A stretch of 64,000 bases of DNA from Candidatus Sericytochromatia bacterium (lineage in GTDB: Bacteria > Cyanobacteriota > Sericytochromatia > S15B-MN24 > JAQBPE01): NCBI GenBank assembly GCA_040400605.1, contig JBBAPZ010000006.1:97524-161523 (forward strand), written 5' to 3'. The notes below the pieces were generated by a model that saw only the letters and a list, made by a program, of their open reading frames with translations, was not told where the DNA came from and searched no databases. Made by a program: the position numbers and the translations under genes. Positions 2,207 through 63,886 of the stretch are shown in pieces (position 1 is the stretch's first letter; every line of letters starts with the position of its first letter).

Positions 2207-2950
2207 TCAGGACGCAACGGGGGTTGGCGATGAGACTGGCGACACGGTTGCACTGGGCGAAGGCGTTGCCGAAGGTGTTGGTGTCTCAAGCGGCGCCTGT
2301 GATGGGGAAGCGACCGAATCAACCGATGCCGGAACAGCGCGACGGCCCCTGCGACGGCCAGGAACGCTCTTCGGCGCGACCGAAGGCGCAACAGATGGTG
2401 ACGCACTGGGACTCGGCAATGCCACCAACGGTGGTGTCAAGCCCAATGCGCGCCAGCCATCTACCCTGAAACTCGCAATCGCATACACTGCATCATCTTT
2501 GAAGGAATGAGCGTAATACGCATCTCCAATCGCATTTTTTTGGCCCAGTTCGAGCTTATACGGCGACTTGGCATCACCGAGGGTCAGCACAAAAGAAGGC
2601 TTATCCAAACCATACTTACCTAATTCGGCCAAACCATCCTGAACTTTTCGCGTTGCCATCAAATTGCGGTAATTGTTGTAAGCCGCATTGAACGTCGCAC
2701 TGTCGACATCACGTTTCGGTTCGGTTGACAATCGCCACTGGACACCGTCGTACTCATAAACAGCGGTCTTGCCATCCACGTTGACCTCGAAGCGCTTCAG
2801 TGCCGTTGCCGCGGCATCCGACATGCTCCAGACCTCGACATCCGTCGTCTCGCCTTTAAGCTCGCGCTTGGACTCGACAAAATAGGCATACCCAACCAAG
2901 ATGATTGCCGCTGCGAGCAGCCCCAAAGTCATTTGCTGACGTGCACGCAT
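2207..2950 (-). CDS. DUF4340-family protein with Pro/Ser/Thr-rich C-terminal tail (accessory to GldG-type ABC systems)
   Basis: N-terminal TM anchor (LGLLAAAIILVGYAY) and low-complexity PS-rich C-terminus (SPSASPSVAPSVAPKS...TPSPSATVSPVSSPTPVAS). It lies directly downstream of a gldG-like gene, the usual DUF4340 position. Confidence 0.65.
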   Translation of the reverse strand: MRARQQMTLGLLAAAIILVGYAYFVESKRELKGETTDVEVWSMSDAAATALKRFEVNVDGKTAVYEYDGVQWRLSTEPKRDVDSATFNAAYNNYRNLMATRKVQDGLAELGKYGLDKPSFVLTLGDAKSPYKLELGQKNAIGDAYYAHSFKDDAVYAIASFRVDGWRALGLTPPLVALPSPSASPSVAPSVAPKSVPGRRRGRRAVPASVDSVASPSQAPLETPTPSATPSPSATVSPVSSPTPVAS

Positions 2951-2952
2951 GC

Positions 2953-4575
2953 TTATCTCCTCCGATACCAGACATAGCCCGCCAATGACAGCAGGAACAA
3001 GGGGAACACCAAAACACTACTGAACATGATCATCTGGAACTGCCACGGGGTAAAATTGATGTTCTTGCTGCTCATGTCCTTGGGCGGGATGGAGACCAGA
3101 CTTTCCTCGTCAGCCATCCAGTTGAGTGAATTCAAGAAAAGGTCCCCGTTGTTGAGATCACTGAAACACTGATTGCTCAAGAAACTGGAGTTCCCTGCAA
3201 CGATCAGGCGCCCTTTGCCCTTTTCAGCCAACATCATGATCGGCAAAGGCCCCTTCTTGTCCTTGGCAGCATCGAACTGGGGACGGCGTTCCATCAGGTT
3301 CGTTTCACCCCACGACTCCGCTGACGTTTCAACCAAGGGCGTCACATTGGTCACACCGGTTGGCAATGCCGCCGCCTTACCCAAGGAACGTGCCGACAGG
3401 AAATACGTCACACCCAAGCCCTGCGTGACGGTGTGGTAAGGAAACTTTGTAATCACAGGCGCTGCCATGTTGCCTTGCACATTGTTTCTGATGCCGGGCT
3501 CAAGCACGAGATCATCACGAACCTCAATGCCATAGTTCTTCACCATGTCACCCAATCCGGCATTCGTCGCCGGATGCAGCGAGACAAACACGCGACCACC
3601 ATTGTCAACATAGTTCTGCAAAGCGACCAACTCTTTTAGCGGCAACGGCTTGGTAGGCCCGGCAACAACTACCAACGCAGCGTCTGAAGGCACTTGGGCC
3701 CGGGAATACAGGGTTAATGAATCCGTCTTGTAGTTTTGTTTGGTCAAGGCATCCTTGGCATTACTCAACCCGAACCGGGTGTCGTAACTGTCCAAGGACA
3801 TTTCACCGTGCCCGGTCAAAAAGTAAATGACCTTTTGGCCGGATTGCGTGACTTTCAACAAGGCTGACGTGAGATCTTGTTCCTGAGAAGCCGTGATGGT
3901 CGTCTTGCGGGTGCCCCGTTGCAGCACGCTGGTTCCATAGGCCGTGACGTTTTCAGCGCGCGCAATTGCCGGTTCACGGTCCGCATCAATGACATCCAAT
4001 GTCAGGCGATCGCCCGCTTCATACTTGTATTCGTTCCACAAAGTCTTCAAATTCGTCGAATAACTGTCCCCGGATTTGATGAACAACGTCACCTTGACCG
4101 GCTCTTTCAAGTTCTTGAGGATCTTTTTGGTCTGTTCAGACAAACTGTATTGCTTATCCTTGGTCACATCCCAATGCAACGGGTGTCTCACACCGATATA
4201 GTTCAATGCACCAAGAATTCCGATGAAGGCCAAAATCTGGACCGCTCCGGTCATGCCGCTCACCGCGTGACGATGACGGAAAGCCTTCACAATCTGCTTT
4301 TCATAAATGAGCGCCGTCGTCAGGACATACAGCACCATAAATACATAACCGGCATTGCGAATCCAACCCGTGGCACTGACCCAAAACACAGGCAGATTCC
4401 CAGCCCATTTCCACTGCAGGCCCGGTACCGTGAACGGCGCAGCCAAGAAACCCAGCAACAGAGCGACAACCAAACACACGATCGCAAGCAACCCGAAATA
4501 CAGATTACTCTTGTCGAGGGCGGGTGGTACCCGCGTCTCATCCAACTGCGACTTTTCTTTATCCATAGCAACCAA
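2953..4575 (-). CDS. GldG-like ABC transporter auxiliary component
   Basis: 540 aa with N-terminal TM helices, a large extracytoplasmic domain and a C-terminal TM (MIMFSSVLVFPLFLLSLAGYVWYRRR). Located between an ABC-2 permease and a DUF4340 gene. Confidence 0.75.
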   Translation of the reverse strand: MVAMDKEKSQLDETRVPPALDKSNLYFGLLAIVCLVVALLLGFLAAPFTVPGLQWKWAGNLPVFWVSATGWIRNAGYVFMVLYVLTTALIYEKQIVKAFRHRHAVSGMTGAVQILAFIGILGALNYIGVRHPLHWDVTKDKQYSLSEQTKKILKNLKEPVKVTLFIKSGDSYSTNLKTLWNEYKYEAGDRLTLDVIDADREPAIARAENVTAYGTSVLQRGTRKTTITASQEQDLTSALLKVTQSGQKVIYFLTGHGEMSLDSYDTRFGLSNAKDALTKQNYKTDSLTLYSRAQVPSDAALVVVAGPTKPLPLKELVALQNYVDNGGRVFVSLHPATNAGLGDMVKNYGIEVRDDLVLEPGIRNNVQGNMAAPVITKFPYHTVTQGLGVTYFLSARSLGKAAALPTGVTNVTPLVETSAESWGETNLMERRPQFDAAKDKKGPLPIMMLAEKGKGRLIVAGNSSFLSNQCFSDLNNGDLFLNSLNWMADEESLVSIPPKDMSSKNINFTPWQFQMIMFSSVLVFPLFLLSLAGYVWYRRR

Positions 4576-4636
4576 TCTCCTATCAGGGCTCTCACCCAGT
4601 TTCTCAAGTCAAGCTCAAAAACAAGTGAGACTTATC

Positions 4637-5347
4637 CTAACGCCAGTGATAGGTCTCGACCGAACGCACCGTCAAAAACAGCGATACCACAATGAAGCTG
4701 AGGTAGAAAATCAGATCCGAACTCTCGATAATGCCACGCCCAAGCTTATCTTGGTGGTTCATCACCGACAAATAAGTCAAGACGTCCCCGGCCGTGCCAC
4801 CAAAGACCTGACCGGCTGAAGGCAACAACCAGAGCAACAAAGACACGGCAAAACTGACCATTGCTGCGATGATCATGTTGGATGTCAACGAACTGGCCCA
4901 TAAGCCGACCGCCAAGAATGACGCACCAAGCAAAAATGACCCGAGGTAGCCGGTAAACAGCATGCCCCAGTCAAGCGACGTAGTAAGACAAAGTCCGAGC
5001 GGAAAGACCAAGGTCAGGGCCATCAGAAACATCAAGTAGCCCAAGGCTGACAAATATTTGCCCAAGACCAGGTCGTGATCACGAATCGGTGAGGTCAAGA
5101 GCAGTTCAATTGTGCCTGTTTTGCGTTCTTCCGCGATGAGCCTCATGGTCAAAGCAGGCACAATCAGCAAGAACATCACGGCCATGTTTTGAAACAGCGG
5201 TTGGAAGTTTGCCTGGCGGGTGTGATAGATAATGAGCGAAAACAAGTAGCCTACGATCGCAATGAACATCGCCGCGATGACATACGCCAAAGGCGAGGCA
5301 AAATAGGCTCGAAACTCGCGCTCGGCGATCGCCATAATCTTAGACAT
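4637..5347 (-). CDS. ABC-2 family transporter permease (GldF-like)
   Basis: Multi-TM protein with the ABC-2 motif IAEREFRAYFASPLAYVIAAMF. Start chosen at ATG 5347 (MSKIMAIAEREF) with a GGAGG 6 nt upstream; it overlaps the ATPase stop by 8 nt. Confidence 0.8.
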   Translation of the reverse strand: MSKIMAIAEREFRAYFASPLAYVIAAMFIAIVGYLFSLIIYHTRQANFQPLFQNMAVMFLLIVPALTMRLIAEERKTGTIELLLTSPIRDHDLVLGKYLSALGYLMFLMALTLVFPLGLCLTTSLDWGMLFTGYLGSFLLGASFLAVGLWASSLTSNMIIAAMVSFAVSLLLWLLPSAGQVFGGTAGDVLTYLSVMNHQDKLGRGIIESSDLIFYLSFIVVSLFLTVRSVETYHWR

Positions 5348-6314
5348 GATGCACCTCCTTGACCGCGGCATCGTCTGACGCACCACTCGTCAATTTCAAG
5401 AAAATATCTTCCAGTGACAGGTTGATGCTCTTCATCTCAACCAGATTCCAACCCGCGCCGACGACCAAACTGGCCACTTTTTCACGAAGATCCGACTCAC
5501 CTCGACTGGTTAACTCAACCAGGACGAGATCCACTTTCTCCGGGTGAGCGCTCACCTGGAGATCACTGACGCCCGGCAATTCCAGCAAACGCGCCTTCAC
5601 TTCGGTCATCGGACCACGAACCGTCACAGACAGGCGTTCGCCACCTTGCAAACGTTCTTCGAGGTCTTCGGGCTTGCCCTCCGCCACGACGCGCCCTTGG
5701 TTGATAATCAACACGCGGGAGCACGTATTCTGAACTTCCTGCAAAATATGCGTGGACAAAATAATCGTGTGGTTCACCGACAATTCTTTGATCAACGCAC
5801 GAATCTGAATGATCTGACCCGGGTCTAAACCACTGGTCGGCTCATCAAGAATCAAAACCGGCGGATTGTGGATCAAAGCTTGCGCGATGCCGACGCGTTG
5901 CCGATACCCTTTCGACAGTTGACCAATCACCTGATTGGCGCGATCCCGCAAAAAACACTTCTCCAAAACAAAATTCAACCGCTCCTTGCGAACCTTGCGG
6001 TCCAGACCCTTCAGCTTCGCAACGAAGTTTAAATAATCCGACACCGTCATTTCCGGATACACCGGCGGAAGCTCCGGCAAATACCCGAGCAAGGCCTTCG
6101 CCGCCAAGGTGTCTTCAGCCATGTCATGGCCACCAATTTCAACAGTGCCCGAGGTCGGACTCAAAAAACCGGTCAACATCCGCATCGTCGTGGACTTGCC
6201 AGCACCATTAGGCCCCAAAAAGCCAATAACTTCACCTGCGTCGACCCGGAAACTGACATCATTGACCGCCGTGCGATCGCCGTAGCGTTTGATCAGATTT
6301 TTGACAACTATCAT
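5340..6314 (-). CDS. ABC transporter ATP-binding protein (GldA-like)
   Basis: Walker A GPNGAGKST, signature LSKGYRQRV and Walker B LILDEPTSGLD are all present. Start re-set to ATG 6314 (MIVVKNLIKRYG) with GGAG 6 nt upstream; the track's 6383 start adds 23 unlikely residues. Confidence 0.85.
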   Translation of the reverse strand: MIVVKNLIKRYGDRTAVNDVSFRVDAGEVIGFLGPNGAGKSTTMRMLTGFLSPTSGTVEIGGHDMAEDTLAAKALLGYLPELPPVYPEMTVSDYLNFVAKLKGLDRKVRKERLNFVLEKCFLRDRANQVIGQLSKGYRQRVGIAQALIHNPPVLILDEPTSGLDPGQIIQIRALIKELSVNHTIILSTHILQEVQNTCSRVLIINQGRVVAEGKPEDLEERLQGGERLSVTVRGPMTEVKARLLELPGVSDLQVSAHPEKVDLVLVELTSRGESDLREKVASLVVGAGWNLVEMKSINLSLEDIFLKLTSGASDDAAVKEVHHV

Positions 6315-6885
6315 GGGCGTCTCCACTTCTTCATGCCTCGGTTCTCCCTTACTTTTCAAGCCGTCACAAACGTATCTTTGCAACGTCCGACAACGAAGGC
6401 ACGCAGGCTCTTGACCAATTCGTGCACCATCAACGGATGGCCGTCTGGTATTTTACCAAACCTTCAAGGAAATATTACAGGTGCACGAAAAACGAAAAAA
6501 CACTTCAACCTTCAAAGGCACATCGCACGCAAAGAAGCGCGACGCCATCCACCAAGCGACGCGGCCTGATTCAGCGCTTCAAACTGCCAATCAAGCCCGC
6601 CTGCGACAGTTTAATCCCAGGAAATCATCACCCGATCGATTGAAACGATTCGATGGGCACGACGGTTGGTCTTCATTTGCACGTGACGTAAATTTACACA
6701 ATCACGGTAAGGATTTTCCAGAAACGTTTCGATTTATTGACCCGCCGAGCACGTGTCAAGCGCTTGGTGTGATCACCCTGCATCAATGCCCAAAGTCACT
6801 CGACGTGCAACCTATCCGTGACATTGTCAGTCTGCGTGAGACGAACTTGTCGAGCCAACAGCCGTTCAAAATGCCGTCAAGGCCC

Positions 6886-7971
6886 TTACGCCCGAGCTAC
6901 CGGCGAGTAATAATGGCTCATGCGCGTCCAACCTGAAAAGAAGTCCGGCAACTCTTGGAGCAAGAAATTCGAATTTGCTACCCAACGGGTACGACCCGTA
7001 TCGGTGTCATGAACCCGAAACTCGCGATCATAGGCCCCTTGCCGTGTACCCGTCAGCAACATGAAATGGCCAGACCCATTTTGATACTCCACACGAATGG
7101 GAACGTCATACCCCTCAACGAGTGTTCGCGCAATATGGTCCAATGCCTGTGAGGTACTGGACACGGAATAGCCCGAATACCGAACATCGGTCATGGTCGA
7201 CACATATTTGTTGACCAGCTCATCAAGGGCAATGCCCCGTCCACCGCTTTGTCCAGGGAGGACCGCTTTGCCCCCAAACTCTTCCAGCCACTCTTTTTGC
7301 TGCGAGGCCACGCCAAATGCGGTGCCGTAGGGATCAACCTGCGCCGGATTCTGCCACCGGTTCAACTCCCACGCATAACGTGGATTGGCTTCTCCCGCGA
7401 GCAACTGCAACACGGCTGGCCCACAGGAATCCTGCCATTGTTGCTTTAAATCCTGACTGTCCCGCATTGTGGACATTGAGTAAATCGTTGATTCACTCTG
7501 CCCCCGCATCTGATTCGCATAGTCCACCACGTTTTCCCACGGCTCCCTGGCTGCCAGCGCTTTCAGGATAAAAACCTGCTCCAATCCCGTATAAGCCGCA
7601 TTGACGAGATTACGAATGGACTCAAGCTGCAAGCCATTATACTGATTCAGCATGCCAACAAGGGTCTGGTACTGCGAAAACCCGGCGAGATCCTGCATCG
7701 CGCCTCGGTACAGAATGGTCGACAATTCACGACGCAACCCGTCGGGATTGCGATAATCAACCTGGACCAAAGTTCTCAAATCGCCACCCGCACTACCGCC
7801 AATCGGCGAAGCAGCCGTGACATCAGCCTTCGCCGCCGGACGGGCCTGCCAAGTATCTCGCCCCAAACCGGCTGTCGCCCCACCCATGGACGACTGCACA
7901 GGGCTGAGATATTGAACGGCAAGCCGTGCCGTGGCAACCGGAATCAGTGGATTGACGGTGCGAATGGTCAT
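6886..7971 (-). CDS. hypothetical protein with C-terminal peptidase-C39-like (papain-fold) domain
   Basis: QDSCGPAVLQLL resembles the nCGPtSlaMvL Cys motif of the C39_2/BtrH_N family. A downstream SGHFMLLTG (His) and RVHDTDTGRTRWV (Asp) follow. The N-terminal ~180 aa has no recognisable domain and no clear signal peptide. Confidence 0.5.
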   Translation of the reverse strand: MTIRTVNPLIPVATARLAVQYLSPVQSSMGGATAGLGRDTWQARPAAKADVTAASPIGGSAGGDLRTLVQVDYRNPDGLRRELSTILYRGAMQDLAGFSQYQTLVGMLNQYNGLQLESIRNLVNAAYTGLEQVFILKALAAREPWENVVDYANQMRGQSESTIYSMSTMRDSQDLKQQWQDSCGPAVLQLLAGEANPRYAWELNRWQNPAQVDPYGTAFGVASQQKEWLEEFGGKAVLPGQSGGRGIALDELVNKYVSTMTDVRYSGYSVSSTSQALDHIARTLVEGYDVPIRVEYQNGSGHFMLLTGTRQGAYDREFRVHDTDTGRTRWVANSNFLLQELPDFFSGWTRMSHYYSPVARA

Positions 7972-8166
7972 AGGCCTCTAATCACACAAGCAGTCAGGTG
8001 AGTACTGTTTTCTTTATGGACCGTTTGGCCGCACATCTTGCTAAAAAACTTTTAAAACCATGTTTTGCTTAAGCTAGGTCGCAAAAGATGAGGCCGCTTA
8101 TTGTGGGATGACGACGTGTGCAAAGCCGAGACCATCGCCCCCGCCAAGCGAGCAAAGTCTGGGAGT

Positions 8167-9174
8167 TCACTCGCTTCGGGTGGCATTAACCACCGAGACA
8201 GGCACGCGTGCCTCCAGAGAAGCCGCGTTCCACGTGGCATTCGTGGAGGCAGTGATCACGGTCTGCCCCGGCGCCAACGACACAACACGCCCCGTCTCAC
8301 TGACCGTCACGATGCTCGAATCACCCGTACCCCAATGGACATCCGCATCGATGGCACCACCCCACGTCGTGATTGTCGAACGCAACCACGACGTATCCCC
8401 GACTCGCATCGTCAGTGCAGACGGTGTCACACCAATGCCGCGGATCGCCTCTTTCGCCAAAGGCGCCTGCACCGTGACCTGGGTCTTCGCAGTTACACCG
8501 TCGTAGGACTGTGAGGAAGCCTCAATCGTGACAACACCTGGCCTTAGTGCCAACAAATCACCATTATCCCCGATCTGAGCGATCGTTGGATCAGAACTGC
8601 GCCAACGCGCCTGACCGACCACCTCGGCACCACCCGCACCCTGCGAAAAAACGAATTGCCACGTTCTGCCAACGGCTACCAGCGCGTCCGTGGGCTGAAT
8701 GCGCGCCTGAATAATACCGTCAAACCGATTTTCTGGTAACCGAGCTTCCACCCCGACACTCCCATCGGTTCCCAGGACACCTGCCGCCGACACAACCTGT
8801 AACGTGGCGCGGGCTTCACGCGGCGGGTTGACGGTTGTTGCCAAAATCGTGACACGTCCCTCACGCAAACCACGGACAAGGCCTCGGTCAGTGATACTCG
8901 CGATTGCCTGGGATGATAGTCGCCACCGTGCGGCCACACCAAGCGCCAGTCCCGCCTCGTCACGTCCAATCACGTTGAATTGCCCCGTCTCTCCCACCCG
9001 AATGCTCAAGGTGGCCGGCTGCACCTCCAGGCTGAACAGGCGCGAGCCCTCCGAATTACCTGGATTCGGTGCCAACGGCAGATCATTGTTGCAGGCCATT
9101 GCCCCACACGCAGCGACAGCCACCAGCAAACGACGGGCGCCAAGGCGATTCAAATGACGGAAAAGCCGGGTCAT
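8167..9174 (-). CDS. lipoprotein with tandem bacterial Ig-like (Big_2-type) domains
   Basis: Lipobox LLVAVAACGAMAC followed by about four ~75-aa repeats with the Big_2-like pattern (L.V.P....L.VGET..L.A......V.W.SSD..IA.V...G.V.A...G...ITA). Its start overlaps the upstream phosphatase stop. Confidence 0.6.
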   Translation of the reverse strand: MTRLFRHLNRLGARRLLVAVAACGAMACNNDLPLAPNPGNSEGSRLFSLEVQPATLSIRVGETGQFNVIGRDEAGLALGVAARWRLSSQAIASITDRGLVRGLREGRVTILATTVNPPREARATLQVVSAAGVLGTDGSVGVEARLPENRFDGIIQARIQPTDALVAVGRTWQFVFSQGAGGAEVVGQARWRSSDPTIAQIGDNGDLLALRPGVVTIEASSQSYDGVTAKTQVTVQAPLAKEAIRGIGVTPSALTMRVGDTSWLRSTITTWGGAIDADVHWGTGDSSIVTVSETGRVVSLAPGQTVITASTNATWNAASLEARVPVSVVNATRSE

Positions 9175-9908
9175 TCCCTGACATCCTCACTTTTTCGGGG
9201 AGCCACGCGCTCCCAGTGTGTCATCAACCACGCATACACACGTTGCCAGACACCTCGCCCCGTGCTTGGGGTGACCGTCGCTGGGATTGGCCGATTCAGC
9301 AAGCGACACTGTTCGGTCACCGGCAACTCCGACCACCAGGCGTAAAAATCCGGTACATAATCAAGCTTGACACGCTGTCCGTGCTCATTGAGTCCGAACT
9401 GACGCATTTCTGCGATCGCCTCCTCAACAGTCCAGCCATCCCGCGCGATGCGCAGGCAAGCAGCCATCGTGCCAGTGCGATCCACCCCGTGGTAACAATG
9501 AAAAAAAACCACGCCGTGCGCCGGGTCCGTCACATTCATCAAAAACCGTGCGGTGTCGAGATGCGACGGAGCAGCCAGTGGTGGAAGCGGCAAATAGACA
9601 TAGTTCAACGCAAGCTCAGCCAACACCTCCCGTTCATGATCACTCTCCAGTCGCAAATTGATCACCGTGTGCACACCGAGTTCCTTCAACCGGACAAAGG
9701 CCTTACGGCTCGGCTGCGCACCGCGAAAAATCCCTGCACCCAACTCACCAAAACGCTCAACTTGATCACCCCCGGGAAACCAACGGGTCACCTCACCATA
9801 AAGCCACAGACCGGCCTGACGCAACACGGGCAAGTGCTCTCCGGCACGCCTGACACGCGTCGCAAAACCATGCACCATCGCAGCAAAACGCGGCGAATCC
9901 GACTGCAT
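9171..9908 (-). CDS. protein tyrosine / dual-specificity phosphatase (CX5R active site)
   Basis: HCYHGVDRTG is the CX5R P-loop of the PTP/DSP superfamily. Start taken at ATG 9908 (MQSDSPRF) with GAGG upstream; the longer track ORF to 9980 would overlap the kinase. Confidence 0.7.
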   Translation of the reverse strand: MQSDSPRFAAMVHGFATRVRRAGEHLPVLRQAGLWLYGEVTRWFPGGDQVERFGELGAGIFRGAQPSRKAFVRLKELGVHTVINLRLESDHEREVLAELALNYVYLPLPPLAAPSHLDTARFLMNVTDPAHGVVFFHCYHGVDRTGTMAACLRIARDGWTVEEAIAEMRQFGLNEHGQRVKLDYVPDFYAWWSELPVTEQCRLLNRPIPATVTPSTGRGVWQRVYAWLMTHWERVAPRKSEDVRE

Positions 9909-9963
9909 GAGCGGCCTCGTCGGAACACGGGGCTCAACGTCGCGTGCAATCACACAGCCATCG

Positions 9964-11745
9964 TCAAGATCCTGGCCCATCGTGTCCTCCCCTCGCGCCC
10001 TTGGTCATCCCGACACCGGTCACATCAGGCGCACTCGGCGGCAACCGCAATCGAAACGTCGCACCAGCACCACGCTCAGAAAACACCTCCAGCGTTCCGC
10101 CAAATTTACGTACGATCTGCTGACTCACAGACAATCCAAGCCCCGTGCCCTTGCCCACCTGTTTCGTCGTAAAAAACGGATCGAAAATTTTGCCCAAAAT
10201 GGCATCGGGTACCCCTTCGCCATTATCGACAATATCCACCTGGACCATCCCTGCCTCAAATGCGGTCAAAATGCGCAAAACACCCCCTGCCTCATCACCA
10301 AATCGCGCCTGAATCGCATCCATCGCGTTCACGATCAGATTCGTTAAAACCTGCCCCAACTCCGTCAACGTCCCCATCACGTGCGGTAACTCAACCAAAG
10401 TCAATTCGCGAACCACCGACATATGCTTCAAACGGTGACTAAGCAACTCCAGCGTATCGTGCAAAACGGCTGTCAACGATATAGGTCGGTACTCCGGTGC
10501 GGGTTGTCGCGCAAAATTCAACAAATTCACCACAATACGCTTGCACCGTTGCGCACCTGCCTCAACCAAGGCCAGTTGATCGCACAACTCAGGATCCTCG
10601 ATATCCATCCGCAACAACTGCACATTCGCCAAGATCGCCGAAAGCGGATTATTCAGTTCGTGCGCGACACCCCCCGCAAGCGTACCAATCGTCGCCAATT
10701 TCTCGGTCTGCACCAACTGGGCCTGCGTTTCCTGCAAACTTCTCAACGCCTGCTCCAACTCAGCCGTACGCTCCTTCACGCGCTGCTCGAGCACTTCATT
10801 AAGGCCATTGATCGTCAAGTAGGCCTCCGCATTCTGCAAAACCAAGGACAACTTCAGCGCGACCTGATTCACAAAGGTCACGTCATTGCGGTGAAACAAC
10901 CGATGTTCCGCCGCACGAAATACAGCCAAAACCCCGTACAACTTTCGATTGGCCATAATCGGTGTCAACGCGCCATGCCACGCCCGCCGCGCATCCTCCT
11001 GCACCAACGCCTCAGTCTCGCCCCCCACAACCACGCTTCGCCTCAGATCCAAACAGCGCAAAATCGCCTGCCCCTGCTCCGTTGAACGCCAAGCGTCTGT
11101 GGGTGCAACACCGACAACCGCCTCCAAAGCCAGATTTGTTGGGTCCCCGACGCACATAACCACCCACGTCTGCTCGGCGGACACCGTATCATGGATCTGA
11201 CGCACACTGTGCTTCAAAATTTCTTTCACATCATAAGACGCAATCAGAAAATCAAAATCACCCAACGCCCGTCCATAAGCCTCCTTGTACCGAACCTCCA
11301 AGCGTGCATTCAACGCATCCAACGCCATCACCCACTGCGCCTGCAAGGATGCCAGCATAGCCAAATCCACCGCCTCAACCGATGCACCAGATTCAAACTC
11401 AATCTGCACCAGGCCTACAGCTCGCGTACCCCTTGCCAACGGCAGCATCACGACATCAGCATCCGCCAAACCGCCTTCAAGGGTTCCAACCACAGCGCCA
11501 CGCCCATAAAGTGGCGCCGGTTCAGCCAAAATGCGCTGGCGCGACCACTCGGGCCTGACCCCGTGACGGGGCAGGTTCCAACCCGGCACGAATCGGACCG
11601 AGCGTATAGGCCACAACTGTCTCAAAATCGTCTCGACTGTCTTTAAACAGGCTGCCGCATCCCCATCCGCATTCAATATCGTCCCAAGCGACGCAAGCAA
11701 TTGCCAGCGATAATCCACGTTGTCCCTAACCAAATCTGCGTGCAT
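9964..11745 (-). CDS. cytoplasmic sensor histidine kinase with two GAF-like N-terminal domains (HisKA + HATPase_c), no adjacent response regulator
   Basis: H-box [11 protein letters not shown] box, G1 (DNGEGV) and G2 (GTGLGLS) boxes all present. No TM segments. Start at ATG 11745 (MHADLV) with AAGGG 9 nt upstream; the alternative start at 11826 would overlap the upstream gene by 62 nt. Confidence 0.8.
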
Positions 11746-11764
11746 CGGCGTCACCCTTTTTGAC

Positions 11765-12910
11765 TCAACGAGCCGCGTGATACGCCCGCATCCCAGCGAA
11801 CGCAACGTCATAACGATTATGCGCATTCCACATCATGTACCCTGTCGCACGCGCATCACTGCCTGCGCGAAGTTGCTCCACGATGTAGCGCGCGTCAAAA
11901 CGGGACACCTTGTAAGGCATCGCCTGCATCCAGGGCCGCACCACCACAGATGTGCCGGCAACCCGATCATTCAACAGGGTCAACCCCTTGAACATAAACT
12001 GATACGGTGCATTGGCCGGCCGCGCAATGCCTGCAAAACCATCATTAAAATGAGAAGGATACAACATTGGGCATAGGACATCCGTGTGGCGCGCCAAATC
12101 AGACAAGCGTTGCCCGGTGATGCGTACGTCAATGTCCATTGCCCAAGCCATAATGCCGTACACATCAATGGATACACGCATCCCCAAGCGATGAAGCGTC
12201 TCGTGCGCGCGCTTCAGAAAGGCAGTGATAATCGCATGCTTGGGTGTTCGCGATTCATCGAAGGCGTAACGCGCATTTTGTGTATCGCCCATTGCCGGAA
12301 AGCGGATGTAGTCAAACTGCACTTCATCAACCCCCGCTTTCACGAGCTCCTTTGCCAAGTCGATGTTATAGTCTTGACACGCCGGTAAAGATGGATCCAA
12401 CCACGACTGTCGGCCCAATTCCTTCCACGGGCCACCCTTGATAGACCGTGCCGCCAATGAAGGCAGCTTCTGCGCCACAATTGGATCATGAAAACACACC
12501 ACACGCCCCGCGACCTGAATCCCATAACGATGTGCCAACTGCACCCTCGCTTTGAGATCGCGCAAAGGCCCCGCAGCACTGGCCTTAACCGTGCGAGCCA
12601 AGGCCACTTCGGAGGGATAGGACACAATCCCGCCTTCATCCTTGGCATCAAAAACAATCAGATTACCCCCCGCAGCCTTCAGATTTTTCAACAGTGTCTC
12701 AAATCTCGGCAAAGCCATTGACGTCGCCGTCACGTAAATCCCACGCAACGGGGGTACTGTCGCCGCATCTTGTGTGACCCCAGACACGTCCCCGATTGTT
12801 CGCGCCTTTGCAGCAATCATTTTCGATTGGGATTCTTGGGCCATGATGGGTGCGCCAGTCAAACCCAACGTGGTCATCAGCGCGCCAAACAAGGCGGTTC
12901 TTACACCCAT
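11765..12910 (-). CDS. secreted putative glycoside hydrolase-like protein (GHL10/DUF4015-like TIM barrel)
   Basis: Signal peptide MGVRTALFGALMTTLGLTGAPIMAQ, then the pattern typical of the family-10-like glycosyl hydrolase (YngK-like) proteins (GIYVTA...LIVFDAKDEGG...DYIRFP). Family assignment from memory only. Confidence 0.55.
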   Translation of the reverse strand: MGVRTALFGALMTTLGLTGAPIMAQESQSKMIAAKARTIGDVSGVTQDAATVPPLRGIYVTATSMALPRFETLLKNLKAAGGNLIVFDAKDEGGIVSYPSEVALARTVKASAAGPLRDLKARVQLAHRYGIQVAGRVVCFHDPIVAQKLPSLAARSIKGGPWKELGRQSWLDPSLPACQDYNIDLAKELVKAGVDEVQFDYIRFPAMGDTQNARYAFDESRTPKHAIITAFLKRAHETLHRLGMRVSIDVYGIMAWAMDIDVRITGQRLSDLARHTDVLCPMLYPSHFNDGFAGIARPANAPYQFMFKGLTLLNDRVAGTSVVVRPWMQAMPYKVSRFDARYIVEQLRAGSDARATGYMMWNAHNRYDVAFAGMRAYHAAR

Positions 12911-13149
12911 GTCAATCCTCCTTTACCCATGGTGCGCGCCATTTGGCGCGACCGGGCAATCGCACGGTCATTATTCCCGCAAGCGGTCCATTTCATTCCA
13001 AAGGTGACGAAGAAGTTGATTTTTGCCATTTCACGACGCGCTGCCTGCAATCACCAGATAACCTGATTTTTGTTTGTAACGTCCGACAGGTACAGGAATA
13101 CCTAAAAATAGATCAGGACGATGGCGAAATCGGTCAGGATACCGGTTGA

Positions 13150-13917
13150 TTGCGGGATGAACATCTTATGACGGATCCAACAATCAGACCTGTCGTTGAA
13201 ACAGGCGACGCAGTATTGCATGAACAATCCCCACGTGAAAGCTTCAGGGCGCACCTTTGGGATGCAATCAAATGCAACTGGCAGCGCAAAAGATACTACG
13301 CTTATCACACGAGCGGTGCCTCCAAAAAACTGTCCAATCATCTGATCGTGAGCGAATTCATTGCCCTGCCGGTGGCGCTTCTGTTCGATTTACTGGCCAA
13401 ACGCTTTCAAAACCGTGGTATCGCCATCGTCAGTGGTGACTTTGTATCAATGAAAACGGTCAAATCACCCGATACCCCGCCAAAATACCGCTGTGCGGCA
13501 AGCGACGACAGTTTCCGCCAGATCAAAGCCGACGTGAAGGCCTATCGCCAGGCGCTTCAAAAGGCGCTGTCCCAAAATGACTTTTGGAGCGCCTCAATGC
13601 TCACTTACACCCTGATCGAATCGATTGAGAACCGGGAGATTGCCGAACGATGCCACTATGCGATGTACAAACACATCGCGGAGTCCGTCGGTCTGGCAAC
13701 CCTTCACGCGGCGGACCACTCGGAGGCTAGCCACGGCGCGAGCAACCAGCTCGCCATCGCATTGATTGCCGTTCAAGCCCAATCACTCACATGGGTCGAG
13801 CCGATTGACCGCCAGGCGCAGATGCTGCATCGCAACGGGGTCGGCATCATCGTCAATGACGTGCCGGACATTCCCTTCAAACACGCATATGAAACCAGGA
13901 TCGCGAAGCACTGTTAA
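13150..13917 (+). CDS. hypothetical protein (orphan, lower-GC gene)
   Basis: 255-aa ORF with clean codon periodicity and no recognisable motif. Local GC is about 50-52% against ~60% for the flanks. It is flanked by AT-rich non-coding DNA on both sides. Confidence 0.5.
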   Translation: MRDEHLMTDPTIRPVVETGDAVLHEQSPRESFRAHLWDAIKCNWQRKRYYAYHTSGASKKLSNHLIVSEFIALPVALLFDLLAKRFQNRGIAIVSGDFVSMKTVKSPDTPPKYRCAASDDSFRQIKADVKAYRQALQKALSQNDFWSASMLTYTLIESIENREIAERCHYAMYKHIAESVGLATLHAADHSEASHGASNQLAIALIAVQAQSLTWVEPIDRQAQMLHRNGVGIIVNDVPDIPFKHAYETRIAKHC

Positions 13918-31683: not shown

Positions 31684-31760
31684 TGGTCGGGATGACAGGA
31701 TTCGAACCTGCGACCCCCTCGTCCCGAACGAGGTGCGCTACCAAGCTGCGCTACATCCCG
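31684..31760 (-). tRNA. tRNA-Pro (anticodon CGG)
   Basis: Reverse complement folds as a 77-nt cloverleaf: acceptor CGGGATG/CATCCCG, anticodon loop TTCGGGA, T-loop GGTTCGAATCC, CCA encoded. Confidence 0.85.
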
Positions 31761-31835: not shown

Positions 31836-32819
31836 CTATTGCCGCGTGGGCAGCACACCCCTTACACGCACCTTTTGGATAAAAATATCAACGAATTCAG
31901 CATCAAGTTGTGTACCTTTGACGGATTCCAACACCGCAATCGCCTTTTCCATGGGCATGCCATCCCGATAGGGACGATTGGATGTCAACGCATCGAAGGT
32001 ATCGGCAATCGCCGTAATCCGAGCGTTTTTGGGAATCTCACCCCCAGGCAGGCTGTGTGGGTACCCCTGACCGTCAATGCGTTCATGATGCGACAGCACA
32101 ATCGGCAAAATCGGCTCAAGCTCACCAATCTGCTTCAGAATGTTGTATCCCACAGACGGATGAATCTTGATATGGTCATACTCTTCAGCCGTTAAACGTC
32201 CCGGCTTGTTCAAAACCTCTTCCCGCACCGCAATTTTTCCAATGTCGTGCAAAATACCGCCGTGACGCAAGACCTGCAACTCCTCTTGCGAATACCCCAA
32301 CTCCTCGGCAACCCAACAGGCGTACTCCCCAACCCGATGAGAATGCCCGTGCGTGTAAGGGTCCCGCGCCTCAAGCGTTGTCGCCAACGTGTCGATCACG
32401 GTCATCATATTGTCGCGCAGTCGCTTCGAAAGGGCCGCCTTCTCCCGCCGCAAACGCAGATTCGTGATGTTTCGCAGCACGCTATGGATAAAGGTATCGA
32501 CTTCGAAAGGCTTGAAAATGTAGTCGTTGATACCGACCTTGAGCGCGTGAACCGGCGTCTCTTCACTGGCATACCCGGTGATGATGATGCTGCAGATTTC
32601 CGGTTGAAGCTCCTTGATCAACCGAATCGTTTCCACACCATCAATGCCCGGCATGCGCACATCCGAAATCACCATATCAAATTCCTGGGTGCGCGCCATC
32701 TCAACGCCCGCGTAACCATCTTCCGCCAGATAAACCTCAAAATCCTGTTTTTTCAGGATTTTGGCCACCGTGCGGCGAATCAGTTCCTCATCGTCGACTA
32801 CAAGTATTTTCTCTCGCAT
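31836..32819 (-). CDS. response regulator with HD-GYP domain (REC + HD-GYP c-di-GMP phosphodiesterase type)
   Basis: REC N-terminus MREKILVVDDEE...DMVISDVRMPGIDG. The HD-GYP module has HGHSHRV...HDIGK...HHERIDGQGYP. ATG 32819 with GGGGAG upstream. Confidence 0.8.
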   Translation of the reverse strand: MREKILVVDDEELIRRTVAKILKKQDFEVYLAEDGYAGVEMARTQEFDMVISDVRMPGIDGVETIRLIKELQPEICSIIITGYASEETPVHALKVGINDYIFKPFEVDTFIHSVLRNITNLRLRREKAALSKRLRDNMMTVIDTLATTLEARDPYTHGHSHRVGEYACWVAEELGYSQEELQVLRHGGILHDIGKIAVREEVLNKPGRLTAEEYDHIKIHPSVGYNILKQIGELEPILPIVLSHHERIDGQGYPHSLPGGEIPKNARITAIADTFDALTSNRPYRDGMPMEKAIAVLESVKGTQLDAEFVDIFIQKVRVRGVLPTRQ

Positions 32820-32962
32820 GCGGCGTCCGTACTCCCCAAAGGTCTCAGTCATCAGACATCCGTCATATACCCAAGACTTCAAAAAAGCTACACACGCCCG
32901 GTGGCGAAACCGGGATCAACTGCTCAAATGGCCCAAAAATCATTTACCCGCGGACTTTTCGG

Positions 32963-33307
32963 TCAAAAAATGGCAGTCAATGATGCGTCCAGTCGCGCAA
33001 GACAGGCCAATTTTTGCAGGCGGGACAACTGTTTAAAAGCATATTCGGCGCGCAGGGCCACCCGTCGTGAATCAAGCATCCAATAGCCAACGAGGGTCAC
33101 AGGCAAATGGGCGCGGGTATAGTGGCCGCCCTTCCCCTTTTGATGCATCCGCAACCGTTGACGCAAATCACGCGTGTATCCCGTGTAAAGACTGCCATCC
33201 GCACATCGCAAGATGTAAACGACATCGTGCCCGCACAGAGGCAGCCGCGCAGCGTGAACCCATCGTTCGGCTGTCAGCACCGCCAGGGCAGGGTGGCTCG
33301 CCTGCAT
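32963..33307 (-). CDS. GIY-YIG nuclease superfamily protein (UPF0213/YhbQ-like)
   Basis: VYILRCADGSLYTGYTRDLRQRLRMHQKG is a GIY-YIG motif. Its start overlaps the upstream stop (TGATG). Confidence 0.6.
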   Translation of the reverse strand: MQASHPALAVLTAERWVHAARLPLCGHDVVYILRCADGSLYTGYTRDLRQRLRMHQKGKGGHYTRAHLPVTLVGYWMLDSRRVALRAEYAFKQLSRLQKLACLARLDASLTAIF

Positions 33308-35379
33308 CAAATCGACTGCATCCACGGGCGCAAGTGACCACCGGATTGCGTCAACAGCCTATCCGCAGTCACGGCATCCACGCCTTGCTGATGCATCACC
33401 ACCGCACGCTTGACCGAGCCCCCCGCTGTATCAAGGAGGCGTTGGCTGGATGAATCATCTTCACGGGTCAGTTGTGCAACAAGACGCCGTGCCCGTTGAC
33501 GCAATTTCTGATTCGAACACTGCACATCCACCATCAAATTGTCGTAAACCTTGCCCAATTGCACCATGGTCAAGGTTGTGATCATATTCAAGACCATCTT
33601 GGTTGCCGAACCCGCTTTCAGGCGCGTGGAACCTGCGACAATCTCCGGCCCGACAGGGAGAACCAAGACGTGATCGGGCACAAAGGGGGTCGCGTGTGGC
33701 TGGTTGCAGGTTAGCAGCACCGTTGCTGCTTCAGCTGCGCGTGCCGCCGCGAGGGCCCCCCAGACATACTGTGCGTGTCCGTTGGCACTGATTCCGACGA
33801 CGATGTCGTGAAGCCCAACCGTTAAAGCGTTGACATCCGCCGCGCCAGCCGACGCGTCATCCTCAGCGCCTTCGATGGCATGTCGCAGGGCGCGATCGCC
33901 CCCCGCAACAATGCCTTGCACCTGCCACTGCGGCACTGAAAAAGTCGGGTAACACTCGGATGCATCCAGCACGCCAAGGCGACCGCTCGTGCCAGCCCCA
34001 ACATAAATCAGGCGCCCCCCGTCACGCAGGCGTGCAACGGTATCGTCAATCACTGCAGCGATCGCCTCCGTGGCGGTGTCAATCGCCCGTAACACGTCGT
34101 AGTCCTGCGAATGCATCACCTGGACCGCGCTGCGGGTGTTCAGGCGATCCAGTCCGGAACTGACCGGATTGGACGCCTCCGTCAACAACTGGGCTGTCCC
34201 TGCCACAACACCTGCCAGTACCCCGCGCCCCCAATTGTTTCCAGGCACGATTTGACCCAAAACCGCTGAGTGCGAGGCACCGGTCACGTGCGGCAATTGG
34301 TTGATTTGGCCGTGAACGGCCTGGTACGCCAAAATGGCGAAAGCGAACGCTTCTTTGTGATCGGCGTTGATCCCCAACTCATCACTGACACACACCCGAC
34401 ACTCGGGCAAAACCTTGACCAGCGAATCAAGCAACGCCGGGTTCCTTGCACCACCACCGGACACCCACACGGTTCGCGGAAACTGCCCTGCAGGCAAAAA
34501 CCGACGGTATTGATCAGCCACACACGCAGCCGTGTAAGCCGTCGCAGTCGCTATCAAATCAACTCCCCAAACGCCCATTCCCTCAGCCTGATGCTTCAAT
34601 CGTTCGACGAACGCCGCGCCATAACGCTCGCGCCCCGTCGACTTGGGCAACGGCTGCCGTAAATAATCATCCGCGGCCAACCAAACAGACAGCAGTTCGT
34701 CTTGAACGCGCCCGGCCTTGGCAAGCAAACCGCCATCATCCCAGCGTTGCGCGCCACCGCTGAAATCTTCCACCAAGGCATCAATGACCATGCAACCGGG
34801 ACCCGTATCGAAAGCCAGCACCTTGGCTGGATCACCATCGGCACTCAAACAGGTCACATTGCCGATGCCGCCGAAATTCTGCATCGCCATCGATTCACCT
34901 GAGCGCCCCCAACACAGCCAATCGACATAGGGTACCAAGGGCGCACCCTGTCCTTGGCGCGCCACATCACCGACTCGAAACTCACCCACCGTGGTGATCC
35001 CGGTGCGCGCCGCGATAACGGCAGGTTCACCCAGTTGAAACGTGAATGCTTCCGGCCCGCACGGCTGGTGCCAGACCGTTTGTCCCGCCACGCCAATGAG
35101 ATCGATTTGTTCCGGACGCAACCCGCGCTCACTTAAAAATCGCAGGACCAAATCAGCCCAATGTTCACCCAACGCGACATCCAAGCCCGCGACCTCAGCG
35201 ACACTGGCGAGGCCTGTTCGATAAAGCGCTGCGATGCGCGCGCGCAAGGACTCAGGCAAAGACCAGGTTGCAGCATCCAACAATTGTGCCTGCAACCGGG
35301 TCCCCCAACCCTGAATATCCACCAAAGCCACGTCACAACCATCAAGCGACGTGCCGGACATCAAGCCAATCACCCACAT
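33307..35379 (-). CDS. bifunctional fusion: anhydro-N-acetylmuramic acid kinase (AnmK, N-terminal) + N-acetylmuramic acid-6-phosphate etherase (MurQ, C-terminal SIS domain)
   Basis: N-terminus MWVIGLMSGTSLDGCDVALVD...PKSTGRE matches AnmK. The C-terminal half, GRLIYVGAGTSGRLGVLDASECYPTF...GSTRLKAGSATKMVLNMITT...GKVYDNLMVDV, matches MurQ. It is a single uninterrupted 690-aa frame. Confidence 0.8.
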   Translation of the reverse strand: MWVIGLMSGTSLDGCDVALVDIQGWGTRLQAQLLDAATWSLPESLRARIAALYRTGLASVAEVAGLDVALGEHWADLVLRFLSERGLRPEQIDLIGVAGQTVWHQPCGPEAFTFQLGEPAVIAARTGITTVGEFRVGDVARQGQGAPLVPYVDWLCWGRSGESMAMQNFGGIGNVTCLSADGDPAKVLAFDTGPGCMVIDALVEDFSGGAQRWDDGGLLAKAGRVQDELLSVWLAADDYLRQPLPKSTGRERYGAAFVERLKHQAEGMGVWGVDLIATATAYTAACVADQYRRFLPAGQFPRTVWVSGGGARNPALLDSLVKVLPECRVCVSDELGINADHKEAFAFAILAYQAVHGQINQLPHVTGASHSAVLGQIVPGNNWGRGVLAGVVAGTAQLLTEASNPVSSGLDRLNTRSAVQVMHSQDYDVLRAIDTATEAIAAVIDDTVARLRDGGRLIYVGAGTSGRLGVLDASECYPTFSVPQWQVQGIVAGGDRALRHAIEGAEDDASAGAADVNALTVGLHDIVVGISANGHAQYVWGALAAARAAEAATVLLTCNQPHATPFVPDHVLVLPVGPEIVAGSTRLKAGSATKMVLNMITTLTMVQLGKVYDNLMVDVQCSNQKLRQRARRLVAQLTREDDSSSQRLLDTAGGSVKRAVVMHQQGVDAVTADRLLTQSGGHLRPWMQSI

Positions 35380-35487
35380 CGTGAAATCCCCCCACGGCGC
35401 ACCGGACACGTGGCCACTTCCGCCCATATCGTGTACATTGAACCATAAACGACATGACGCAAACCAGATTATGACCGTGTAAACAAG

Positions 35488-37086: not shown

Positions 37087-37176
37087 CAACGCTTGTCACC
37101 CCTCGGCATCCCACCCTATAATCGTTTGGTGGTGCGCTTGCTGACACTCGCAGCGTCACTGGATCATTGAGGTGGC

Positions 37177-61966: not shown

Positions 61967-62048
61967 TGGGGACAGCGGGACTTGAACCCGCACGACTCGA
62001 AGTCAGGCGATTTTAAGTCGCATGCGTCTGCCATTCCGCCATGCCCCC
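61967..62048 (-). tRNA. tRNA-Leu (anticodon TAA), CCA not encoded
   Basis: Reverse complement: acceptor GGGGGCA/TGTCCCC (one G-T pair), D-arm TGGCGGAATGGCAGACGC, anticodon loop CTTAAAA, long variable arm and T-loop GGGTTCAAGTCCC. Confidence 0.8.
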
Positions 62049-63704: not shown

Positions 63705-63714
63705 CCTGGTTTTG

Positions 63715-63788: not shown

Positions 63789-63794
63789 TGACGG

Positions 63795-63871: not shown

Positions 63872-63886
63872 ACTCCGGGTTTTCTT

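Follow-up and report, generated by a model that had tools for sequence, protein, structure and literature searches.

The window, the whole 64-kb stretch of DNA analyzed here, contains on its minus strand a string of genes for exported, regulatory, and transport proteins. The four open reading frames at the upstream end of this string had been described in a sequence-only reading, and all of them are present where it placed them. In upstream to downstream order, the features are:

11765..12910, minus strand: exported DUF4015 (PF13200) TIM-barrel glycosidase-like protein, 381 aa, first gene of the operon
9964..11745, minus strand: soluble GAF(-GAF)-HisKA-HATPase_c histidine kinase, 593 aa (Pfam and NCBIfam matches)
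9171..9980, minus strand: cytoplasmic Cys-based atypical dual-specificity phosphatase, 269 aa (Pfam, PDB profile, AF2, and Foldseek)
8167..9174, minus strand: lipoprotein with three Big_2 Ig-like domains, 335 aa (Pfam and lipobox inspection)
6886..7971, minus strand: conserved 361-aa protein (tblastn orthologues in related loci)
2207..6383, minus strand: ABC-2 exporter set, the conserved downstream end of the cluster (Pfam), with the four genes below
about 5340-6314, minus strand: exporter ATPase (Pfam)
4637-5386, minus strand: ABC-2 permease (Pfam)
2953-4575, minus strand: GldG-like ABC_transp_aux protein (Pfam)
2207-2950, minus strand: DUF4340 protein (Pfam)

The first four genes are tightly spaced, with successive junctions of 19 nt, −17 nt (or +55 nt), and −4 nt. 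As had been claimed, the kinase ATG at 11745 begins 19 nt past the hydrolase stop, and the phosphatase stop overlaps the start of the Big_2 lipoprotein gene (ATGA). The 56-nt gap proposed between kinase and phosphatase rests on an ATG at 9908 and is revised here. We favor the ATG at 9980, which has a GGAGGA Shine–Dalgarno sequence upstream and which three assemblies annotate as the start codon; with this start, the two genes probably overlap by 17 nt. From this arrangement, we infer that the four genes are co-transcribed. Consensus scans for promoters and terminators gave matches at or below shuffle expectation and were uninformative on the operon boundaries, and an Rfam search over positions 6200–13300 yielded neither riboswitches nor other RNAs, whether at the gathering threshold or at E ≤ 1.

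The hydrolase gene has a good Shine–Dalgarno sequence, and the N-terminus of its product bears a signal-like segment. The protein matches PF13200 (DUF4015) over the entire profile (positions 1–313 of 313; E = 3e-82; 276.7 bits against a cut-off of 27). The earlier GHL10 label does not hold, since the match to GHL10 (PF02638) reaches 16.5 bits, below the gathering score of 27.9 bits. As a putative exported glycosidase, it is most similar to enzymes cleaving polymers with GlcNAc in them, peptidoglycan and PNAG being examples. DUF4015 is little covered in the literature searched, where a fusion to a YkyA domain is mentioned.

The kinase is soluble, as no transmembrane segment was found in it, and matches HisKA (E = 2e-13), HATPase_c (E = 7e-23), and one solid GAF domain (E = 6e-7). 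Its H, N, G1, F, and G2 boxes are complete, in agreement with the initial description: H362, N469/N473, D507xGxG, FDPF, and GTGLGL are invariant across 15 orthologues, and so is an HE[LI]NNP motif. The proposal of two GAF domains stands for the second, which scores 30.5 bits against a Pfam cut-off of 22.4, and is tentative for the first. In the orthologues, the first GAF appears as weak Pfam matches. A local hhalign comparison of the first domain with GAF2 (E = 0.013, probability 3%) aligned only a GAF-like C-terminal motif, and the global comparison failed to align the two. The orthologue group is discrete, with members at E ≤ 1e-123 and the next full-length match at 1e-61. All scores lie far under the equivalog cut-offs, so the kinase is the orthologue of no named kinase.

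The phosphatase matches PTP-NADK (E = 1e-14) as well as Y_phosphatase2 and DSPc in Pfam. Its P-loop, H161-C162-YHGVD-R168-T-G170, is invariant in 23 homologues and in all loci. Together with the fold, this motif (HCYHGVDRTG) places the protein in the Cys-based PTP/dual-specificity superfamily, and the CX5R assignment is thereby confirmed. The AF2 model has a pLDDT of 84, with the core above 90, and predicts an N-terminal helical hairpin (residues 30–66) and a C-terminal helix as additional elements; Foldseek matches it with probability 1.00 to PFA-DSP1, Siw14, TpbA, VHZ, and SsoPTP. The nearest solved relative by sequence is TpbA (PDB profile E = 7e-18), and PTPMT1 is also matched by sequence profile (E = 6e-7). 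No signal peptide or transmembrane segment was detected in the phosphatase (maximum KD19 of 1.26, at an internal position), and its N-terminus is disordered and acidic.

A general-acid Asp is absent from the loop before the P-loop, where Asp105 of TpbA aligns with Ala136 in the window. The equivalent residue is Asp in nine of ten kinase-linked phosphatases, the window protein being the one with Ala, and Gly or Asn in all five kinase-less ones, a split that could mean a function dependent on the kinase but is phylogenetically confounded. The role of general acid might fall to the invariant P-loop Asp167.

The multidomain members among the 150 best phosphatase representatives are fusions to PLDc_2 and Metallophos domains; the long proteins scanned with Pfam in this set contain no fusion to HisKA, HATPase, or REC. 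Two of the fused proteins are very close homologues, P0347 with two PLDc_2 (HKD) domains (E = 1e-74 over the phosphatase part) and P0345 with a calcineurin-like metallophosphoesterase. Paralogues of the phosphatase have unrelated neighborhoods, and the close paralogue P0065 lies among housekeeping genes, so the cluster context is specific to one orthogroup. Scanning metagenome contigs with the phosphatase profile yielded mostly short contigs or paralogues and no informative orthologous loci. A role in anti-phage defense or as a conflict system, considered because of similarity to PTP-SAK and Tc-R-P, was rejected, as PADLOC matches none of the five cluster proteins.

The lipoprotein matches Big_2 in three stretches (E = 2e-22). 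It had been described as a four-domain Big_2 lipoprotein; its identity stands, and the number of domains found by Pfam is three. By inspection, its lipobox, L17-V-A-V-A-A-C23, fits the pattern [LVI][ASTVI][GAS]C. The 361-aa protein has no Pfam (even at E ≤ 5), NCBIfam, PADLOC, or PDB sequence match, and its tblastn orthologues in L004–L013 and L112 are 44–48% identical. A hint of a Cys/His motif is seen in this protein. The exporter gene order is syntenic in L004–L013.

The order DUF4015–kinase–phosphatase is found in the window and in L007/9, L012, L107, L108, and L112; L014, a 1.8-kb fragment, covers the kinase–phosphatase junction only. The genes are also present in L111 and L113, where a K+ channel gene on the opposite strand is inserted between kinase and phosphatase. 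Kinase–phosphatase synteny thus extends to at least nine diverged Sericytochromatia loci, and the adjacency persists down to about 46% identity, often with translational coupling; the junction is −4 nt in L007 and L108 and +4 nt in L012. This persistence exceeds what most orphan kinases show with a neighbor. The kinase sits after DUF4015 in every examined locus that retains upstream DNA, and all kinase orthologues examined belong to this cluster. Conservation of the neighborhood was a check set beforehand, and its outcome establishes the linkage as real and old.

Five loci lack the kinase (L004/5/11, L006, L010, L013, and L110) and retain DUF4015–phosphatase–Big_2, with a DUF4015-to-phosphatase junction of 24–28 nt, corresponding to a clean deletion. 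Gene order is therefore kept in at least nine kinase-bearing and five kinase-less loci, the proteins of which are only 44–73% identical. In neighbor-joining trees of five cluster genes, the kinase-less loci cluster together, sometimes with one stray kinase-bearing locus, and the kinase-bearing loci branch deeper, so that the kinase was lost once. The loss in this one monophyletic clade shows that the kinase, although ancestral to the cluster, is dispensable.

The genes for the Big_2 lipoprotein, the 361-aa protein, and the ABC exporter lie downstream in all loci extending that far, with the 361-aa gene after the Big_2 gene in each except L012, where it has no match. An orthologue of the Big_2 protein is present in every related locus long enough to cover the region. 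The suggested tie of the signaling genes to this protein is variable, with three or four genes lying between in most kinase-bearing relatives, and this speaks against the mechanism proposed in the sequence-only reading. Genes for PATAN/DUF4388, CheX, and 294-aa proteins separate phosphatase and Big_2 in relatives; counterparts of these and of a roughly 160-aa pre-ABC gene were found nowhere in the window. CheX genes occur separately in L112 and L113, and L107 has a PLDc_2 gene in the upstream part of the cluster.

Our own REC HMM, run over the window, detected a single REC domain. It belongs to a REC-HD-GYP protein (31836-32882) that lies about 20 kb away. The kinase thus has no REC gene beside it for about 20 kb in the window, nor does it have one in L009, L012, L107, L108, or L112, which bears out the claim that no response regulator lies nearby; no cognate regulator was identified within the 64 kb of this genome. 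The NarL-type regulators in L111 and L113 adjoin another kinase, of 1084–1114 aa. We take HE[LI]NNP to be the HisKA E/DxxN/T motif for response-regulator phosphatase activity. Its retention implies a conventional REC partner elsewhere, and we infer that the regulator is unlinked to the kinase locus.

On balance, we lean slightly toward a lineage-specific envelope-remodeling operon in which the orphan kinase acts via a regulator encoded at another locus, with the phosphatase as a component in its own right. The four genes would form the front half of a cell-envelope cluster specific to Sericytochromatia, with the DUF4015 glycosidase, the Big_2 lipoprotein, the conserved 361-aa protein, and a GldAFG-like ABC-2 exporter as its putative extracytoplasmic hardware and the kinase and phosphatase as two embedded cytoplasmic regulators. 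The GAF kinase would be a normal, catalytically intact sensor, receiving a cytoplasmic ligand and passing its output to a response regulator encoded elsewhere. Judging from its motifs and its model, the phosphatase would be a competent Cys-based enzyme of the TpbA/PFA-DSP type with a substrate of its own (a phosphoprotein, or else a phospholipid or small phospho-metabolite), and not a surrogate receiver. That the clade without the kinase keeps DUF4015–phosphatase–Big_2 argues that the phosphatase works independently of the kinase. Both may nevertheless feed the same envelope process. Counting against this reading are the long-lived and often coupled adjacency of the two genes and the Asp versus Gly/Asn split at the TpbA Asp105 position.

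We consider it unlikely that the phosphatase is directed away from proteins altogether, toward a phospholipid head group or a small phospho-metabolite, as a PTPMT1/PGP-phosphatase-like or PFA-DSP/Siw14-like enzyme. The phosphatase would then serve envelope lipid or glycan precursor metabolism, and the kinase would merely regulate transcription of the cluster. The fusions in P0347 and P0345, the PLDc_2 gene of L107, the PTPMT1 profile match, and the inositol-pyrophosphate phosphatases PFA-DSP1 and Siw14 as top structural matches are all consistent with this reading, as are the dispensable general-acid Asp and the invariant P-loop Asp (DRTG). The latter is common to MptpB and myotubularin-type lipid phosphatases. 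On the other hand, the P-loop has none of the Lys/Arg-rich character of PFA-DSP and Siw14, the protein has no membrane anchor or amphipathic lipid-binding element, the window cluster has no PLD gene, and the solved structure closest in sequence, TpbA, is that of a pTyr protein phosphatase (PMC4409338).

The sequence-only reading had paired the histidine kinase with the Tyr/dual-specificity phosphatase in place of a REC protein. We find no positive support for such a pair, and it is improbable that the phosphatase serves the kinase as a dedicated partner in a REC-less switch controlling exported proteins, whether by hydrolyzing the phospho-His of the kinase or the phospho-Asp of a target, or by stripping regulatory pTyr or pSer from the kinase. 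The adjacency in at least nine diverged loci, with stop/start overlaps in the window, L007, and L108 and the 4-nt gap in L012, would fit this idea, as would the lack of a nearby REC and the split between Asp136 and Gly/Asn, which follows kinase presence. An unconserved general acid would also be compatible with good leaving groups such as phosphoramidates and acyl phosphates, and in L033, from a deltaproteobacterial MAG, a distant phosphatase homologue adjoins a hybrid kinase with a GAF domain. However, a whole kinase-less clade retains the phosphatase with its motifs intact, the channel gene separates the two genes in L111 and L113, and the HExxN motif is typical of kinases that service a REC partner. 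Moreover, the long proteins scanned among the 150 best representatives contain no kinase or REC domain, and one adjacent histidine kinase in roughly 35 distant loci is about the chance expectation. No phosphatase with a PTP fold is known to us that acts on phospho-His or phospho-Asp in two-component systems, and the literature searched yielded nothing on an orphan histidine kinase combined with a tyrosine phosphatase. Improbable, too, is the specific form in which the phosphatase is a dedicated off-switch of the orphan GAF kinase, hydrolyzing its phospho-His (or the phospho-Asp of a remote regulator) through a cysteinyl-phosphate with no need of a general acid.

Chance adjacency of unrelated genes, conceivable because orphan kinases are common and land beside many gene types and because the paralogous phosphatases have unrelated neighbors, is effectively refuted by the synteny, with the order recurring in at least nine kinase-bearing and five kinase-less loci, frames that overlap or nearly abut, and every kinase orthologue examined in this cluster.

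The present evidence describes a tidy but ordinary orphan kinase within a lineage-specific operon. If kinase and phosphatase share one pathway, the locus would offer a first functional handle on DUF4015 and on a phosphatase family of over 13,000 representative sequences. It would also give insight into how Sericytochromatia, a class lacking cultured models, regulate their envelope. Should the phosphatase act directly on the kinase, it would represent a new PTP-fold enzyme class in two-component signaling, and the pair would control a peptidoglycan/GlcNAc-polymer hydrolase and a surface export cluster in non-photosynthetic relatives of cyanobacteria.

Among characterized phosphatases, TpbA (PA3885) from Pseudomonas aeruginosa is about 24% identical to the window protein across the whole catalytic core, and both have HCX5R(T)G. 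TpbA is a regulatory phosphatase linked to cell-surface polysaccharide and biofilm (PMC2691606, PMC4409338). It carries a signal peptide, and its target, the diguanylate cyclase TpbB/YfiN, is reached in the periplasm, whereas the window phosphatase lacks a signal peptide and transmembrane segment, has the extra N-terminal hairpin and C-terminal helix, carries Ala in place of the proposed general acid Asp105, and would share an operon with genes for a histidine kinase and a DUF4015 protein. The inositol pyrophosphate phosphatases PFA-DSP1 and Siw14 rank first in Foldseek, with E about 2e-9 and a target-relative TM of about 0.74. Together with the PGP phosphatase PTPMT1, they match by sequence profile at an identity of only about 20%, and the HCYHGVDRTG P-loop contrasts with the basic HCKRGKHR type of PFA-DSP/Siw14. 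SixA, CheX/CheZ, Spo0E, and Rap would be comparable only if the phosphatase acted directly on the kinase, as small accessory phosphatases beside a kinase that drain a phosphorelay; their folds and chemistry are unrelated to those of the window phosphatase, and none is a Cys-based PTP.

Cwp19 from Clostridioides difficile, a GHL10 peptidoglycan lytic transglycosylase, belongs to another Pfam family than the PF13200 protein of the window. The two are 18% identical, with kinship at the level of fold and profile only. Unlike Cwp19, the DUF4015 protein has no CWB2 wall-binding repeats, and its catalytic residues and substrate are putative. For the kinase, the models of EspC (Myxococcus) and AtoS (E. 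coli) match the core at E about 1e-57, and it shares the H, N, G1, F, and G2 boxes and a cytoplasmic GAF input with orphan NtrB/AtoS-type (HE-x-NNP) kinases. Many myxobacterial and cyanobacterial kinases likewise have no adjacent regulator; the fixed slot of this one between a DUF4015 gene and a DSP gene is previously undescribed. The individual proteins all join known families as new members, and the undescribed part is the conserved cluster of DUF4015, orphan GAF kinase, DSP, Big_2 protein, and GldAFG-like exporter.

Four minus-strand ORFs lie head to tail between positions 8167 and 12910 of the window, which bears out, with small corrections, the four-gene string described in the sequence-only reading.

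Genes of the string
11765-12910, minus strand: DUF4015 hydrolase (gene 1), 381 aa
11745 (ATG) to 9964, minus strand: histidine kinase (gene 2), 593 aa
9171-9980, minus strand: phosphatase (gene 3), 269 aa, with HCYHGVDRTG and several DSP/PTP family matches
8167-9174, minus strand: Big_2 lipoprotein (gene 4), 335 aa

The kinase ATG at 11745 is located 19 nt past the stop of gene 1. The phosphatase ATG at 9980 has a GGAGGA Shine-Dalgarno sequence, and three independent assemblies use it as the start; with it, kinase and phosphatase overlap by 17 nt. The tight junction between the two stands, but the 56-nt gap first proposed needs an internal ATG at 9908 and probably gives way to this overlap. 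Likewise, the Big_2 gene start does overlap the phosphatase stop, the two sharing ATGA, but its product has three Big_2 stretches, preceded by a VAAC lipobox, and not four domains. The window proteins have identical copies on three metagenomic contigs, and all of their closest named homologues come from Candidatus Sericytochromatia or 'Cyanobacteria bacterium' MAGs.

Related loci were collected by exact-protein look-ups and a genome-collection scan. The order DUF4015, kinase, phosphatase is found in the window, L007/L009 (MAG LC083), L012 (RYN_339), L107, L108 and L112, with kinase-to-phosphatase junctions of -17, -4, +4, +73, -4 and +87 nt (window, L007, L012, L107, L108 and L112, respectively); L014, a 1.8-kb fragment, covers only this junction. 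The pair is thus syntenic in diverged Sericytochromatia loci, and this recurrence rules out chance adjacency. In L111, L113 and the truncated L109, kinase and phosphatase are split by an opposite-strand K+ channel gene, so their co-transcription is broken in that lineage.

K+ channel genes (530 aa, Ion_trans with TrkA_N or Slo-like RCK)
L111 3304-4896, strand opposite to kinase and phosphatase
L113 3309-4901, strand opposite to kinase and phosphatase

The kinase is absent from L004/5/11, L006, L010, L013 and L110, where 24-28 nt separate DUF4015 from the phosphatase and Big_2 comes next. Upstream, CxxCxxCC, CBM9 and Aminotran_5 genes are common to kinase-bearing and kinase-less loci. Downstream, nearly every locus of sufficient length continues with genes for Big_2, a 361-aa protein, ABC ATPase, ABC-2 permease, GldG-like auxiliary protein and DUF4340; L012 has no match for the 361-aa protein. 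In neighbour-joining trees of five cluster genes (phosphatase, DUF4015, Big_2, 361-aa protein and ABC ATPase), the kinase-less loci cluster, at times with one stray kinase-bearing locus, and the window and L012 form deep branches. The parsimonious reading is that the ancestral cluster had the kinase and that it was deleted once. Judged from these sequences, the phosphatase would clearly function without the kinase.

Most kinase-bearing relatives have a gene encoding only PATAN/DUF4388 at the phosphatase 3' end.

PATAN/DUF4388-only genes (about 180 aa)
L007 7153-7716, converging on the phosphatase 3' end
L108 4085-4642, converging on the phosphatase 3' end
L109 2856-3404, converging on the phosphatase 3' end
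L111 5832-6371, converging on the phosphatase 3' end
L112 4423-4959, converging on the phosphatase 3' end
L113 5913-6434, converging on the phosphatase 3' end

L112 and L113 also have CheX genes nearby, and L109, L111 and L113 encode a 1084-1114-aa hybrid kinase accompanied by NarL-type regulators. The window has none of these PATAN/DUF4388, CheX, NarL-type regulator or hybrid kinase genes.

The kinase comprises GAF, HisKA and HATPase_c domains (Pfam), with no hydrophobic segment reaching transmembrane strength; a second GAF domain is well supported, and a first one is no more than suggestive. The AHE[LI]NNP H-box (His362), N-box, DxGxG, FDPF and GTGLGL are invariant in 15/15 full-length orthologues, and the enzyme looks fully functional. 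HExxN is a HisKA motif reportedly tied to phosphatase activity on the cognate REC protein; that it is so strictly conserved speaks for a conventional regulator encoded somewhere. All six-frame ORFs were searched with a REC profile derived from six classical receivers. The only REC in the 64-kb window belongs to an HD-GYP-type protein about 20 kb from the kinase, and five other kinase-bearing loci (10-21 kb) gave none, in agreement with the earlier remark that no response regulator lies nearby. The 15 full-length orthologue clusters all score E<=1e-123 and the next match comes at 1e-61, which sets the group sharply apart; all placeable members sit in the DUF4015-phosphatase cluster. Three further members are on contigs equal in length to contigs that carry phosphatase homologues. 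The kinase directly follows DUF4015 in every locus retaining the upstream gene, which is not visible in the 5' fragments L008 and L014. The window kinase is the most divergent orthologue. At column 300 of kinase alignment A2, in the second sensor domain, it lacks the 'EPC' Cys present in 14/14 others.

Elsewhere in the window, the REC protein, probably a c-di-GMP phosphodiesterase, adjoins a tRNA gene and shows no link to the kinase. Positions 33307-38463 form a cell-wall recycling and attachment neighbourhood.

Other window features
31687-31760, minus strand: single tRNA
31836-32882, minus strand: REC-HD_5 (HD-GYP-type) protein
33307-35427, minus strand: AnmK (anhydro-MurNAc kinase) fused to a SIS/GKRP-like (MurQ-like) domain, one 706-aa ORF
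35488-37086, plus strand: GH3 NagZ-like protein
37177-38463, plus strand: LytR-CpsA-Psr protein
61967-62048, minus strand: single tRNA
63627-63960, plus strand: four-tRNA cluster at the window end

A profile of 23 phosphatase homologues matches P. aeruginosa TpbA best (E=7e-18), followed more weakly by DUF442, AtPFA-DSP1, SsoPTP, Siw14 and PTPMT1. In the AF2 model (pLDDT 84), the DSP core is predicted confidently and is extended by a helical hairpin (residues 30-66), a C-terminal helix and, at the N-terminus, a disordered acidic stretch; Foldseek ranks PFA-DSP1, Siw14, TpbA, VHZ and DUF442. No signal peptide is found. Asp167 within the P-loop is invariant. In contrast to TpbA, where Asp105 is the proposed general acid, the window phosphatase has Ala136 (codon about 9573-9575) at this position. 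Residue 136 is Asp in 9/10 kinase-linked phosphatases, the window being the exception, and Gly or Asn in 5/5 kinase-less ones, a correlation confounded by phylogeny because the kinase-less loci form one clade; the split may be purely phylogenetic. A direct circuit between kinase and phosphatase, the non-canonical module suggested earlier, would be consistent with this Asp136 pattern and with the conserved coupling of the two genes, but several counter-indications make it quite improbable.

The phosphatase family has 13,446 representatives at E<=0.001. Among multidomain members of the best 150, fusions are to PLDc_2, metallophosphoesterase or tandem phosphatase domains, and none to a kinase or REC. 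Very close homologues (E ~1e-75) include P0347, a fusion to two PLDc_2 (HKD) domains, and P0345, a fusion to a calcineurin-like metallophosphoesterase. In L107, too, the upstream part of the cluster includes a PLDc_2 gene (384-1625). Phosphatase paralogues from the same MAGs are surrounded by unrelated genes. Two distant homologues from deltaproteobacterial MAGs have kinase genes as neighbours: in L033 (2013-4560) a GAF-HisKA-HATPase-REC hybrid kinase gene comes 100 nt after the phosphatase gene, and in L036 (8823-10477) the phosphatase gene lies 3 nt past an APH-family kinase gene. With about 35 distant loci compared, one GAF hybrid kinase neighbour is compatible with chance.

Gene 1 has a strong Shine-Dalgarno sequence, AAAGGAGG, and a signal-like N-terminus. 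It matches Pfam DUF4015 (PF13200) end to end (E=3e-82), whereas its GHL10 match is under threshold; the putatively secreted glycoside-hydrolase-like protein about 19 nt upstream is confirmed, its GHL10 assignment is not. LysM or polysaccharide-deacetylase fusions are frequent among DUF4015 homologues, the DUF4015 profile picks up Cwp19 (E=3.5e-8), and Firmicutes DUF4015 is fused to a YkyA domain, a partner of peptidoglycan deacetylases (PMC12700454). From these fusions and the Cwp19 match, we infer an exported enzyme acting on peptidoglycan or a PNAG/chitin-like polymer.

The 361-aa protein (6886-7971, minus strand) comes next after Big_2 in nearly every related locus, at 44-48% identity, and has no match in Pfam, NCBIfam, PADLOC or PDB sequences. 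Cys and His in its motif pair 'DSCGPAVL ... GHFMLLTG' may resemble those of papain-like or C39-like peptidases. Between it and the ABC ATPase, relatives carry a gene of about 160 aa that is conserved among them; at this position the window has about 500 nt (6384-6885) without a minus-strand ORF of at least 40 aa, a remnant of that gene by tblastn or an Rfam match.

The data fit best with a model of a two-layered, lineage-specific envelope operon. Glycosidase, Ig-like lipoprotein, 361-aa protein and ABC-2 exporter would form the extracytoplasmic layer, and kinase and phosphatase, as two cytoplasmic regulators, the second. The kinase would be an ancestral, dispensable orphan sensor, most likely partnered by an unlinked REC protein, and the phosphatase an independent component. 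Its substrate may be a phosphoprotein, by analogy with TpbA, or a lipid or small phospho-metabolite, as suggested by the PLD fusions and the similarity to PFA-DSP/PTPMT1. The cluster opens no long-standing question; each component adds a new member to a known family, and their conserved combination, restricted to an uncultured class, is undescribed.
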